DNA of 7,079 bases from Escherichia coli (GTDB lineage Bacteria; Pseudomonadota; Gammaproteobacteria; Enterobacterales; Enterobacteriaceae). The stretch's first letter is position 1. Each line of letters opens with the position of its first letter. The translations under genes were made by a program, and so were the position numbers. Positions 1-5,173 of this stretch are shown here, in pieces. The stretch is taken from assembly GCF_003334305.1 (NCBI RefSeq), contig NZ_QOWS01000048.1. One strand, 5' to 3'. The notes under the pieces were generated by a model. That model saw nothing but the letters and a program-made list of their open reading frames with translations. It was not told where the DNA came from and did not search any database.

Positions 1-183
1 TCACGCCTGAAGGGAAAGCTGCACGTTATCAGCAAGCGTTACACTCAGCGCATTGAGCGACATAATCTGAATCTGAGGCAGCACCTGGCACGGCTGGGAC
101 GGAAGTCGCTGTCGTTCTCAAAATCGGTGGAGCTGCATGACAAAGTCATCGGGCATTATCTGAACATAAAACACTATCAATAA
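1..183 (+). CDS. insB: IS1 transposase InsB (InsAB') C-terminal fragment; 5' end outside window
   Basis: Open frame from the window edge to TAA at 181-183; the encoded C-terminus ...[24 protein letters not shown] matches IS1 InsB as I recall it. Confidence 0.85.
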
Positions 184-198
184 GTTGGAGTCATCACC
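176..198. repeat. IS1 right terminal inverted repeat (IRR)
   Basis: atcaataagttggagtcatcacc overlaps the insB stop codon, as in IS1, and is the near-reverse-complement of the IS1 left end GGTGATGCTGCCAACTTACTGAT. Confidence 0.7.
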
Positions 199-981
199 TA
201 CAACTGGGTACAGCATGAACCCTCAGACAGAAAACAAAGTGATGAGCGGCTAAAACTGGAGATTAAGGTGGCACATATCCGCACTCGCGAAACATATGGA
301 ACCCGGCGGCTCCAGACGGAGCTGGCAGAGAATGGCATCATCGTTGGTCGTGACCGACTGGCACGTCTTCGTAAGGAGCTAAGGCTACGCTGTAAGCAGA
401 AACGCAAGTTCAGAGCGACTACGAACTCGAACCACAATCTGCCAGTTGCGCCAAATCTGCTGAACCAGACGTTCGCTCCTACAGCACCAAATCAGGTCTG
501 GGTGGCGGACCTGACGTATGTTGCCACACAGGAGGGATGGTTGTACCTCGCTGGCATCAAAGATGTTTATACGTGCGAAATTGTCGGCTACGCCATGGGA
601 GAGCACATGACAAAAGAGCTGACAGGTAAAGCCCTGTTTATGGCGCTCAGGAGCCAGCGCCCACCTGCCGGGCTAATCCATCACTCTGATCGAGGTTCAC
701 AGTACTGCGCATACGATTACCGGATCATACAGGAGCAGTTTGGTCTGAAAACATCAATGTCGCGTAAAGGTAACTGTTACGACAACGCTCCGATGGAAAG
801 CTTCTGGGGAACGCTGAAAAATGAGAGCCTGAGCCACTATCGTTTTAATAACCGGGATGAAGCCATCTCAGTAATACGGGAATACATTGAGATTTTCTAC
901 AATCGTCAGCGTCGTCACTCTCGTCTGGGGAATATCTCCCCGGCAGCCTTCAGGGAAAAATATCATCAGATGACTGCTTAA
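199..981 (+). CDS. IS3-family transposase OrfB (DDE integrase catalytic domain), 5'-truncated
   Basis: The six-frame ORF 268-981 is open in-frame back to 184, with no start codon of its own. Product has IS3-family OrfB hallmarks: ...NQVWVADLTYV...EGWLYLAGIKDVYTCEIVGYAM..., HHSDRGSQYCA..., SMSRKGNCYDNAPMESFWGTLKNE..., YNRQRRHSRLGNISPAAF. Close to but not identical with IS3, IS150 or IS911 OrfB as I recall them. Confidence 0.85.
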   Translation, partial: YNWVQHEPSDRKQSDERLKLEIKVAHIRTRETYGTRRLQTELAENGIIVGRDRLARLRKELRLRCKQKRKFRATTNSNHNLPVAPNLLNQTFAPTAPNQVWVADLTYVATQEGWLYLAGIKDVYTCEIVGYAMGEHMTKELTGKALFMALRSQRPPAGLIHHSDRGSQYCAYDYRIIQEQFGLKTSMSRKGNCYDNAPMESFWGTLKNESLSHYRFNNRDEAISVIREYIEIFYNRQRRHSRLGNISPAAFREKYHQMTA

Positions 982-1023
982 AAAAGAACAAATGGTAGTG
1001 TCCGCTATTGCCAGTACACCTCA
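199..1023 (+). mobile_element. IS3-family element (possibly IS600-like), 3' portion only; 5' part displaced by the IS1 end at 198/199
   Basis: OrfB-type DDE transposase reading frame 199-981, then a putative right terminal IR whose reverse complement reads TGAGGTGTACTGGCAATAGCGGACACTACC (plus 994-1023, ending ...CA at 1023), typical of IS3-family TG...CA termini. No orfA or left IR is present between the IS1 end and orfB. Confidence 0.75.
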
Positions 1024-1223
1024 GGTATCAAAAAGCGATAGATGCAGCTAATACACGACATAACCAAGAAATAAATCATTAAACGACAACACTTAATACC
1101 ATATTGTGAAGATGTTCAGACATGGCGGAATTCCCCTATTCTTTGTTGGCGCTTACAACAGACTATATTCCGCCATATCTGTCTTTATTGTGTATAAACC
1201 ATCGATACTGATGTTTGATAGTG

Positions 1224-2522
1224 CTAAATAATCATTGGCGCAATCACAAAGCCTAATGCCACTCCAGCAATAATTCCCCCCAACCCAGGCAGCATAAATG
1301 GATGATTCAGCACATATTTGCCTACACGAGTTGTGCCGGTAGTATCAAATTCCATGGCAGCCAGTGATGTTGGATACGTTGGCAGTACAAATACTCCGGT
1401 GACGGCCACATAGGACGCCAGAATTGCCCAGGTGGGCACGTCAAGCGCGACGGCAAGCGGGATAATTAACGGCGTGGTCGCACCTTGCGAGTAGAGCAGC
1501 GCGCAAGTGCCAAAAAGAACCAGCGCCAACAACATCGGATACGCCTGCAAAATATCACCAGCAATATCTTTAATCTCAGTTAAATGCGCATCAATAAAAG
1601 TGGTGCCTAAGGTTACAATGCCGAGAATTACCGCCAGCGAACTCATCCCCGCACGGAATGTGGAGGTGAGAATAATGGCATCGGTCGCCGTCTTACACAG
1701 CATCACCATCAGGCAGGCGGCAGAGAGCATACAGATAATAATGATATCGCGTGTTTCCATCGGTTTACCGATATCAAAACCCGGACGCAGTTGGGGGAAG
1801 GCAGCAAGAATAACAATAGCGACCGTCGCCAGCAGGAACAATCCGACGGAGAGCGTCGCACCTGGCTTGATGCTGCTATTATTCTCGTATTTTTGCACCA
1901 GTCCTTTTTGCAGGCGCTCAAGGTAGACCTCGTCATCCTGCAACTCACATCCCTGTCGGGAAGCAATAAAAGCGGCGACCATCGCGGCAGCAAAAGAGGT
2001 GGGAAGACATACCGACATCACTTGAATAAAACTGACACCGTTTACCTCCATAATAGTGAGCATAGCCGCCATTGCGGCGCTGATCGGCGAACCGGAAATC
2101 GCAACCTGCGAAGCGACAACCGAACCGGCAAGCGTGCGGGAAGGACGGATACCGGACTCTTTCGCCACTTCAGCAATCACCGGCAGCGTGGAAAAAACAA
2201 TAAACCCAGTACCGGCCATAATGGTCATAGACCAGGTGATAATCGGCGCGATTATGTTGATATATTTCGGGTTACGCCGCATAAAATTACCAGCGACGCG
2301 TACCAGATAATCCATTCCGCCTGCGGCCTGTAAGGCTGAGGCCGCCACAACAACGGTCATAATAATCAGGATCACGTCGACTGGCGGCGACCCCATAGGC
2401 AGACCAAATCCCAGAGTCAGAATGGCAAGCCCAAGCCCGCCACATAAACCAATACCGATTCCCCCCTGGCGAATACCAAAAAATATTGCACCAAGTACTA
2501 CGATAATTTCCAGCCAAACCAT
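1224..2522 (-). CDS. Anaerobic C4-dicarboxylate transporter, DcuA/DcuB family (432 aa)
   Basis: The 432-aa product aligns along its whole length with E. coli DcuA as I recall it (N-terminus MVWLEIIVVLGAIFFGIRQGGIGIG... versus DcuA MLVVELIIVLLAIFLGARLGGIGIG...; RRNPKYI, TLPVIAEVAKE, LPTYPT, GTTRVGKYVLNHPF motifs). Strongly hydrophobic throughout. GGAG Shine-Dalgarno 7-8 nt upstream of the ATG at 2522. Confidence 0.9.
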   Translation of the reverse strand: MVWLEIIVVLGAIFFGIRQGGIGIGLCGGLGLAILTLGFGLPMGSPPVDVILIIMTVVVAASALQAAGGMDYLVRVAGNFMRRNPKYINIIAPIITWSMTIMAGTGFIVFSTLPVIAEVAKESGIRPSRTLAGSVVASQVAISGSPISAAMAAMLTIMEVNGVSFIQVMSVCLPTSFAAAMVAAFIASRQGCELQDDEVYLERLQKGLVQKYENNSSIKPGATLSVGLFLLATVAIVILAAFPQLRPGFDIGKPMETRDIIIICMLSAACLMVMLCKTATDAIILTSTFRAGMSSLAVILGIVTLGTTFIDAHLTEIKDIAGDILQAYPMLLALVLFGTCALLYSQGATTPLIIPLAVALDVPTWAILASYVAVTGVFVLPTYPTSLAAMEFDTTGTTRVGKYVLNHPFMLPGLGGIIAGVALGFVIAPMII

Positions 2523-2587
2523 AATGTTCTCCGTTATAAATATAATTCAGTTAAAAGCGAATAACTTTCTGGCTGCGATTTAAATGA

Positions 2588-3307
2588 TTATTGGGTTAAA
2601 AGATAATGTTTACCGACACGATTTTCGTACCATTTTATTCCGGCACGAACGAGTGACGCCGTTGAGTCAATATAGCGGGAAGGCTGCTCTTTAACGGCTT
2701 GCGCCAGAATAACCGGAATTTCTGTACAACCAAGAACAAGGATTTCTGCACCGCGAGAAAATAATATTTCAGCCTGCTCATTCATCAACTTTTGTGCGTG
2801 CGCTATATTGCCAGCTTTCAAGGAATAAATACTTTCCATCACTTTTTTCTGACCGTCGGCATCGGGGCTGACACAGGTAAATCCCAGCGACTCAATTCCT
2901 TTTTGGTATAAACCCATATATAGCGTGGCATTGGTGGCTAACAAGCCAATTCGGGTTTTACCACAGGCGCGAACTTCATTGATCGTAGTTTCTACGATAC
3001 TTAATATATCAATATGACAAGCATCTTTTAATTCTTTGAACCAGTAATGCGCGGTATTACAGGGAATAACAATACATTCTGCCCCGGCATCTTCCAGCTT
3101 ATGCATATAATCACGCATAACGGGTAATGGTGAACGCCCATGATGCATTAATGCATCGGTACGGTCAGGAATATCCGGGATCGAAGAAATAATTAAAGGA
3201 ATATGTTCCTGATCACATTGTGCAGCGGTAAAAGTTACAAATTTATTAAACAGGTCGACGGTAGCTGCCGGCCCCATTCCACCGAGTACACCAATTAAAC
3301 CTTTCAC
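2588..3307 (-). CDS. Asp/Glu racemase-family enzyme, aspartate-racemase-like (239 aa; GTG start)
   Basis: Signature motifs of PLP-independent two-cysteine amino-acid racemases: GVLGGMGP near the N-terminus, IVIPCNTAHYW (first catalytic Cys) and LVLGCTEIPV (second catalytic Cys). Start codon is GTG at 3305-3307 with a GAGG Shine-Dalgarno ~10 nt upstream; an in-frame stop lies 4 codons further upstream. Only 65 bp separate it from the downstream Dcu gene on the same strand, with no terminator seen, so the two are probably co-transcribed. Confidence 0.85.
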   Translation of the reverse strand: MKGLIGVLGGMGPAATVDLFNKFVTFTAAQCDQEHIPLIISSIPDIPDRTDALMHHGRSPLPVMRDYMHKLEDAGAECIVIPCNTAHYWFKELKDACHIDILSIVETTINEVRACGKTRIGLLATNATLYMGLYQKGIESLGFTCVSPDADGQKKVMESIYSLKAGNIAHAQKLMNEQAEILFSRGAEILVLGCTEIPVILAQAVKEQPSRYIDSTASLVRAGIKWYENRVGKHYLLTQ

Positions 3308-3651
3308 AATACCTGCCTCTCAAAACGTTAATGACAATACGCGGTAAATAACTGCTGCTCTCTTTTTTAACAGTCGAAATGGGCGATGAGAAATGCAAGG
3401 TTGTACAAGGCGATGCAAGACACGCATGATGCAGCTATGGAACATTCCGCTTATTCACCATAGTGATGATGTATTCTGGTTATCTGACGGAAAAATTTCG
3501 TTTTTTTGGCGAAATGTGATATCAACGTCAATACCGGAAATGAAGGGGTTATGCACAAAACGAATGATAAAGGCCAGGTTGTGCTAATTGAGAACATTAT
3601 TTTTATTGCCGGGATGTTTTATTATGTCTTTGGATTGAAAATACAGGTGCC
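3308..3651. promoter_or_regulatory. Divergent promoter/operator region between the racemase-Dcu operon and the LysR gene
   Basis: 344-bp non-coding gap between divergent start codons. Contains three 10-bp-phased direct repeats (atgcaagg 3393-3400, gtacaagg 3403-3410, atgcaaga 3413-3420), an overlapping ATGC-N7-GCAT dyad (3413-3427) and a TCAC-N4-GTGA dyad (3455-3466) with LysR-type T-N11-A spacing. Confidence 0.5.
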
Positions 3652-4596
3652 ATGGTAATGAAGAATATCGAGACAAAATGGTTATACGATTTCCTGACAC
3701 TGGAAGCCTGTCGCCATTTTTCTCAGGCGGCAAAAGAGCGTAATCTTTCGCAACCCGCATTCAGCCGACGAATTAAGGCGCTGGAGGCAGCGATCGGCGT
3801 TGTTTTATTCGATCGCACGACCACCCCTTTACAATTAACCGAAGAGGGCAAGCTCTTTCATTCCCAGACTCGCAGCTTATTACAGCAGCTTGAATGCAAT
3901 TTGGGGGAGTTAAACGGCCAGAGTTTACTCGGCGTTCCCAACATTAAAATTGCAGCCGCGCACTCACTATCCCTGAGCGTATTACCCAAACTGGTGCATT
4001 CACTTACCGCCTATGGCGGAGAATTTGTCTATCATGTTGAAGCCATTGATGTTGTCCAGGCCGTAAATACGTTACGCGAAGGCAAGAGTGACTTTATTAT
4101 TTCGTTTCGCGATGAAGATCTTATGCAATCGCCTTTTTGCTGCCTGAAACTGTTTGAATCTGAGTTGTACCCGGTATGTGCCGCCGACGCACAGGGGCAC
4201 CCTGTATTCGATATCACTCAGCCCCAGGTTCCTTTGCTCAACTATACCGCCACATCTTATATGGGCAGGTTGGTCAATCGTCATCTGGCAGAGGTTGGAG
4301 GTATTACCGGGCGCACGATATTTATCTCTTCGATGAGCGAGTTATTAAAGAATATGGCGCTCAACGGATACGGCATTGCCTGGTTACCGATCTGGTCGAT
4401 CGTCGATGAACTACAGACCAAACGTCTGATATGCCTTGATGCTGCTAAATTGACAGTCCCCATTCAGGCTTATATTTACCGAATGAACACCCGACTGAAT
4501 AGAACCGCCGAGAACCTCTGGCGTATTTTACAGGAACATATGCCAGACGATTTAATCCAGCAGATATCAATGGAAGAGCCAGCATGCCGCAATTGA
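3652..4596 (+). CDS. LysR-family transcriptional regulator (LTTR), YjiE/HypT-like; true start more likely the ATG at 3658
   Basis: N-terminal winged-HTH region (...LEACRHFSQAAKERNLSQPAFSRRIKALEAAIGVVLFDR...) followed by a LysR-type substrate-binding domain. The N-terminus resembles what I recall of E. coli YjiE (...NIETKWLYDFLTLE...). An AGGTG Shine-Dalgarno at 3645-3649 sits 8 nt before the ATG at 3658 but only 2 nt before the ATG at 3652. Confidence 0.9.
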   Translation: MVMKNIETKWLYDFLTLEACRHFSQAAKERNLSQPAFSRRIKALEAAIGVVLFDRTTTPLQLTEEGKLFHSQTRSLLQQLECNLGELNGQSLLGVPNIKIAAAHSLSLSVLPKLVHSLTAYGGEFVYHVEAIDVVQAVNTLREGKSDFIISFRDEDLMQSPFCCLKLFESELYPVCAADAQGHPVFDITQPQVPLLNYTATSYMGRLVNRHLAEVGGITGRTIFISSMSELLKNMALNGYGIAWLPIWSIVDELQTKRLICLDAAKLTVPIQAYIYRMNTRLNRTAENLWRILQEHMPDDLIQQISMEEPACRN

Positions 4597-4713: not shown

Positions 4714-5173
4714 TTACTTACGGTCCGTAAACGGGCTGCCCGGACAGGGAATCGATAACTGCTCTCCCATTTTATCCTCTTCAAGCTGGTGCTTTATGTA
4801 ATCCTGTATCTTCGCCGTGTTCTTACCCACTGTATCGACGTAGTCCCCCCTGCACCAGAACTCCCTGTTCCTGTATTTGAATTTCAAATCACCAAACTGC
4901 TCGTAAAGCATCAGACTGCTTTTCCCTTTCAGATATCCCATAAACCCGGATACGCTCATTTTGGGCGGGATCTCCACAAGCATATGGATATGATCTGCAC
5001 AGCATTCAGCTTCCAGAATCCGTACGCTTTTCCACTCACACAGCTTTCTCAAAATACTGCCTGTTGCTCTACGCTTCTCTCTGTAGAACACCTGTCTTCG
5101 GTATTTTGGCGCAAAAAACTATGTGATATTTACAGTTCCATCGGGTGTGCGCTAAGCTCTTTTCGTTCCCCAT
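4714..5173 (-). pseudogene. tnpA: IS200 transposase tnpA (Y1/HuH), apparently frameshifted
   Basis: ATG at 5173 (minus) opens MGNEKSLAHTRWNCKYHIVF, then the frame changes at a T6 run (plus A6 at 5113-5118). The remainder ...FAPKYRRQVFYREKRRATGSILRKLCEWKSVRILEAECCADHIHMLVEIPPKMS...FWCRGDYVDTVGKNTAKIQDYIKHQLEEDKMGEQLSIPCPGSPFTDRK* is in another frame (six-frame ORF 4714-5091). The intact IS200 TnpA as I recall it reads through ...KYHIVFAPKYRRQ..., so this copy appears to carry one extra T. Confidence 0.75.

Follow-up and report, generated by a model that had tools for sequence, protein, structure and literature searches.

The first kilobase of the window, by which we mean the whole 7,079-nt stretch of DNA that was analyzed, is very probably a scar, now inert, that a series of insertion-sequence events left behind in a genomic island of E. 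coli and in which the right end of an IS1 copy has become joined to the 3' part of an IS600 element. Over its entire length, the window is found at 100% identity in the chromosomes of the E. coli strains A7 and LSC52, ATCC 43896 and others being nearly 100% identical to it, and the region that it covers is a mosaic genomic island. In RefSeq, the first kilobase is annotated with an 'IS1 family transposase (programmed frameshift; internal stop)' and an 'IS3-like element IS600 family transposase (incomplete; missing N-terminus)', both of which are classed as pseudogenes and already present as such in about 200 genomes; the next annotated feature, on the opposite strand, is an anaerobic C4-dicarboxylate transporter gene.

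Alignment, profile matching and the RefSeq annotation all identify positions 1–198 (plus strand) as the 3' end, nt 571–768, of an IS1F-like element of 768 bp that starts before the window, position 1 corresponding to IS1 nt 571. In the window-identical genomes, the complete copy has the bounds of an IS1 element, as it is 768 bp long and extends from IRL GGTAATGCTGCCAACTTACTGAT to IRR ATCAATAAGTTGGAGTCATCACC, the imperfect terminal inverted repeats of about 23 bp; only nt 571–768 lie inside the window. The right inverted repeat occupies positions 176–198 (plus strand) and hence ends at 198, where the preliminary description had placed its end. The C-terminus of InsB is encoded by positions 1–183, with the stop codon at 181–183, and its translation matches the NCBIfam profile transpos_IS1. 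The insA and insB' frames are present in this copy, as is the frameshift motif TTAAAAAACTC (A6C type). The IS1 transposase is not intact, because insB contains an internal TAG at IS1 nt 541–543 (L001:7971-7973), 30 nt upstream of the window start, at which the CFT073 and S. dysenteriae copies read TGG (Trp) in the same alignment.

Immediately beyond the IS1 end, homology to IS600 begins. Upon alignment to the full 1264-bp IS600 of BL21 (NZ_CP060121, L006:1322-2585), we determined that the homology starts exactly at position 199, corresponding to IS600 nt 439, and ends at position 1023, corresponding to nt 1264 (plus strand), with five substitutions and a 1-nt deletion (99.3% identity). Such agreement, about 99% over 825 nt, far exceeds what chance would give. 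The element is specifically an IS600 fragment, an incomplete member, rather than just 'IS3 family'. The remnant shares with the BL21 element the orfB frame, the right inverted repeat and the DDE (rve) core, while nt 1–438, comprising the left repeat, orfA, the frameshift region, and the start and first part of orfB, are missing. The orfB frame is open without a start codon of its own from 199 to 981 (plus strand; 260 codons plus TAA), its first in-frame start-type codon being GTG at 268, and the two remaining frames are full of stops. Its translation covers positions 118–369 of the 369 positions of NCBIfam transpos_IS3 and, among Pfam domains, matches HTH_21, most of which is kept, and rve (1.1e-25), the DDE core of which is kept entirely. 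Alignment, reading frames and profiles thus agree with the preliminary description, which had noted an IS3-family orfB running in-frame from 199 with no start codon, orfA or left inverted repeat. It was also observed that the insB stop (181–183) and the orfB remnant (from 199) share a reading phase, with a single stop codon separating the two frames; this is probably a coincidence.

The right inverted repeat of IS600, AGTGTCCGCTATTGCCAGTACACCTCA, lies at 997–1023 (plus strand), ends with ...CCTCA at 1023, and, in a comparison by eye, agrees at 19 of its 27 positions with the left-end repeat of BL21 read as the reverse complement. The paired 5'-TG...CA-3' terminal repeats of an IS3-type element were not found, since neither the window nor the DNA upstream of it in the source genomes contains the left repeat. 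Without nt 1–438, the remnant would provide neither an OrfAB transposase nor the means of recognition at both ends. Judged from their sequences, both elements are dead and neither would be able to move by itself, since IS600 has lost its left end, orfA and the orfB start, and IS1 carries the TAG in insB.

Two origins had been suggested for the junction between positions 198 and 199: (i) insertion of IS1 into an intact IS3-family element, the other half of which would lie just upstream of IS1, and (ii) an IS1-mediated deletion. Our results argue against the first and fit the second. In the window-identical genomes (ATCC 43896 and A7), no IS600 left half lies directly upstream of IS1, where an antiporter gene is found instead. 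The 9 nt on either side of IS1 in these genomes are CTGCAAATC on the left and TACAACTGG on the right, and a 9-bp (8–11 bp) target duplication was found around IS1 neither in the window lineage nor in HUSEC2011 (CAGGCCCTT / TACAACTGG). Thus, the IS600 left part and the 9-bp duplication, which the preliminary description had proposed to look for upstream of IS1, are both missing there. The lack of a duplication is to be expected after deletion or recombination and is no argument against the identification of the element as IS1.

Junctions were searched for in 5,426 complete E. coli genomes and in PLSDB plasmids, the chromosomes covered thus being those of E. coli. The IS1/IS600 junction itself is carried by 201–230 genomes, about 4% of the complete E. 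coli genomes. A chimeric probe that ran through IS600 to nt 447 and then into the IS1 left end, which is able to reveal a simple insertion and an inversion product alike, detected the reciprocal junction in none of the 5,426 genomes among the matches listed, which comprise up to 40 pieces per record, so that a reciprocal junction could escape in the 372–383 IS-rich records having 40 listed pieces. Because there is no duplication, no upstream IS600 and no reciprocal junction, simple nesting fails and an IS1-associated deletion holds. True nesting does occur: in the S. dysenteriae plasmid NZ_CP026787 (NCTC 9718), IS1 lies within IS600 at a point 18 nt downstream of the window's site (IS600 1–466 / IS1 / IS600 458–1264), flanked by the 9-bp duplication GAACCCTCA. 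However, that plasmid keeps both halves of IS600, whereas the window lineage has only the right half, and with an antiporter 3' end to the left of IS1 in genomes that are 100% identical, the differing flanks CTGCAAATC and TACAACTGG, and the reciprocal junction absent from all 5,426 genomes among the matches listed, it is scarcely credible that IS1 sits in a complete IS600 whose second half and 9-bp duplication lie just outside the window. The term 'nested insertion', under which the junction had been described, therefore does not fit what is left at the site, where only the right side of IS600 is found.

The site in which this IS600 copy originally landed can be recognized from an uninterrupted allele. 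IS600 is absent from E. coli E7-1N7, in which the homology with the window sets in at position 1024 and an intact 229-aa Sel1/TPR-repeat gene spans the insertion point; therefore, IS600 originally landed in that gene. By comparison with this intact gene, positions 1024–1082 of the window (plus strand), a stretch of 59 nt that directly follows the right end of IS600, encode its final 19 codons (...YQKAIDAANTRHNQEINH*) plus the stop, a remnant that carries no RefSeq annotation. The empty site of E7-1N7 (…AAAAATGGTATC…) is compatible with IS600 insertion at GGT, and a left junction retaining the IS600 3-bp target duplication was found in no sequenced genome searched, among the matches listed.

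The junction between the IS600 right end and the Dcu side is present in 338 genomes, more than the 201–230 that have the IS1/IS600 junction. In GYX208DH4E-2 and many others, there is no IS1, and IS600 from nt 3 is joined to the part equivalent to window position 367 onward, the join (L003:5399-5430) falling at a short shared CCTTC. This internally deleted form lacks nt 439–606 and has the left repeat, while the window form is the reverse; as neither can be derived from the other, a complete IS600 must once have been present at the site. The left flank of the internally deleted form, CCA, does not constitute a 3-bp duplication with the right flank, GGT, and also differs from the Sel1 gene, so that the GYX208DH4E-2-type lineage has been rearranged on the left as well. 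A probe for an intact IS600 with this left flank gave no match above 80% probe coverage, only the deleted form being found among the matches listed.

Intramolecular replicative transposition can yield inversions besides deletions, and IS1 has clearly been involved in rearrangements at this locus. It could accordingly be supposed that an IS1-mediated inversion or translocation took place, and that the left part of IS600 survives elsewhere on the chromosome beside a second IS1. Such an outcome is very unlikely, however, given that the chimeric probe of IS600 up to nt 447 and IS1 IRL had no match in the 5,426 genomes among the matches listed, and that a probe joining the 5' part of the Sel1 gene to the IS600 left end likewise matched none of the 5,426 genomes among the matches listed. 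We therefore retain the IS1-associated deletion as the origin of the junction.

The DNA to the left of IS1 has a history of its own. In ATCC 43896 and A7, IS1 has as its left neighbor a basic amino acid/polyamine antiporter gene, whose 3' end it adjoins and which is part of an antiporter–Orn/Lys/Arg decarboxylase–antiporter module. This antiporter/IS1 junction is found in 448 genomes, including CFT073, in which the right flank of IS1 is unrelated DNA (ykgR side, AACGGTAAA); the CFT073 IS1, which shares the left flank, likewise shows no original 9-bp duplication. The O104:H4-type genome HUSEC2011 has the same IS1/IS600 junction and the same insB TAG, with an IS1 that differs at 3 of 768 positions, and its left flank is a ParB/PAPS-reductase fragment, a flank present in 41 genomes. 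The IS1/IS600 junction is known, then, with at least two different left flanks. Since the insB TAG is common to the antiporter-flank and ParB-flank lineages, IS1 would already have been dead when the flanks diverged, or soon after.

Comparison of the window-lineage IS1 with the CFT073 copy revealed only two substitutions in nt 1–541 vs nine substitutions and two indels in nt 542–768 (Fisher p = 4e-4). This mosaic structure indicates recombination between IS1 copies, and the window arrangement resembles a combination of two loci, with a left arm of the CFT073 type and a right arm of the O104 type. These events may have run in either direction: the ancestral flank may have been either the antiporter or the ParB fragment, and the recombinant IS1 may be that of the window or that of CFT073. 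For the subsequent exchanges of the left flank, homologous recombination is the likelier route, given that both lineages sharing the junction have a broken IS1 transposase gene. Composite junctions of this type had been described as recombination hotspots; the term suits the IS1 copy, with its two left flanks and its mosaic sequence, but not the junction as such.

Upstream of the window, at L001:867-8198, the antiporter–decarboxylase–antiporter module has an IS1-family element on each side, and the two differ: one is a divergent copy at about 867–1633 (minus strand), the other the IS1 whose 3' end opens the window. This layout resembles a composite transposon; no target duplications were seen around the bracketed module by eye.

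Taken as a sequence of events, these observations would be explained as follows. (i) IS600 would have inserted into the Sel1/TPR-repeat gene, tail to tail with the Dcu gene, a step for which the uninterrupted allele provides direct evidence. (ii) An IS1 end would then have been joined to IS600 between nt 438 and 439. Both the junction and the loss of IS600 nt 1–438 and of the 5' part of the Sel1 gene are observed, and two mechanisms may be envisaged for them: a single-step intramolecular (abortive/replicative) transposition of IS1 into IS600 with an adjacent deletion, or a simple IS1 insertion after which two direct IS1 copies recombined. The one-step and two-step routes give an identical product and are indistinguishable. 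(iii) Homologous recombination within IS1 would subsequently have exchanged the DNA to its left, as suggested by the alternative flanks and the mosaic IS1, leaving the antiporter–decarboxylase–antiporter module at IS1 in the window lineage and the ParB/PAPS-reductase fragment in the O104:H4-type lineage. Deletion linked to IS1 is a well-established process: an abortive transposition model for it is cited in PMC10569738, and IS1-linked deletions have been described in the long-term evolution experiment, as has recombination between direct IS1 copies (PMC4173774).

In its structure, the scar is of an already known kind and is an ordinary deletion or recombination product. In the adjacent deletions and IS1 × IS1 deletions of E. 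coli and Shigella, there is likewise one IS1 end on foreign DNA, no 9-bp duplication, and a loss of the intervening DNA. The mechanism here is no different from that of other IS1-mediated deletions, but the endpoint lies inside another insertion sequence (IS600 nt 438/439), and the window IS1 subsequently acquired an inactivating stop codon. A one-sided arrangement also exists on plasmid pSD1_197, in which IS1 abuts IS600 nt 316–1264, at an insertion point 123 nt from that of the window. Both pSD1_197 and NZ_CP026787 have the same relative orientation as the window, the 3' part of IS600 lying on the side of the IS1 IRR. However, the IS1 copies of these S. dysenteriae plasmids are only 91% identical to that of the window and represent a different isoform, so that the plasmid junctions are independent of the window's. 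IS1/IS600 joins thus appear to be recurrent, both nested and one-sided, the join in the window being of the one-sided kind.

When plasmids were searched for the junction of the window, 10 S. dysenteriae records had a probe coverage of at least 80%; the two that were fetched, NZ_CP026787 and pSD1_197, proved to contain different junctions.

The truncated orfB might be regarded as a working gene, in which a 237-aa protein would be made from GTG 268 by read-through transcription from IS1 and would regulate or inhibit the transposition of IS600. GGAG lies 6 nt upstream of this GTG, the DDE core would be kept in the product, the frame is open over 260 codons with only five substitutions relative to an active copy, the orfB frame shares its phase with the insB stop, and the junction has been kept in about 200 genomes. 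However, the openness of the frame is accounted for by the youth of the remnant (99.3% identity), and a further part of orfB has been deleted in a sister lineage, that of GYX208DH4E-2, so that no constraint on the frame is evident. Moreover, the upstream IS1 reading frame is itself broken, and RefSeq classes the remnant as a pseudogene. No promoter-like site was found near the junction, and a scan for promoters driving the remnant ORF and for terminators yielded nothing relevant, with counts at the level expected from shuffled sequence. We therefore see only a very slender chance that orfB works as a gene and prefer to regard it as part of a dead element.

A broader role for the scar seems improbable to us: the dead IS1 would serve as a portable homology patch by which whole island modules are swapped again and again beside the Dcu/cysteate-racemase-like/LysR cluster, and/or the OrfB remnant (237–260 codons) would be expressed and modulate IS600 in trans. 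Among the modules that such a patch would swap are the antiporter–decarboxylase–antiporter unit and the ParB/PAPS-reductase defence-type DNA. As the inert scar that we take it to be, the arrangement disrupts no functional gene of the window except the long-lost Sel1/TPR gene and has little import beyond annotation; nonetheless, the junction is usable as a lineage marker, and it shows IS1 copies stitching genomic-island modules together.

The Dcu-family anaerobic C4-dicarboxylate transporter gene (1224–2522, minus strand) is intact and runs towards the IS600 remnant from the opposite strand, with its stop codon 200 bp beyond the IS600 end, in agreement with the approximately 200 bp reported in the preliminary description. 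The remnant is not expected to affect expression of the Dcu gene, because it lies downstream of the 3' end of that gene. Between the two, and outside the insertion-sequence scar, folding identified a stable hairpin at 1117–1181, formed by a 15-nt inverted repeat (CAGACATGGCGGAAT / ATTCCGCCATATCTG; −25.3 kcal/mol, z = −4.8), which, given its predicted structure, is probably a terminator between the convergent Sel1 remnant and Dcu gene.

Beside the Dcu gene, a racemase gene (2588–3307, minus strand) scores above the NCBIfam cut-off for the cysteate racemase CuyB, and a divergent LysR regulator (3652–4596, plus strand) scores as HypT. Together, the Dcu, racemase and LysR genes (1224–4596) resemble a small cluster for taking up and racemising an acidic amino acid or a sulfonate. 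Farther along, an IS200/IS605-family tnpA (4714–5173, minus strand) is frameshifted in the window lineage and intact in GYX208DH4E-2, and represents another decayed mobile element of the same island.
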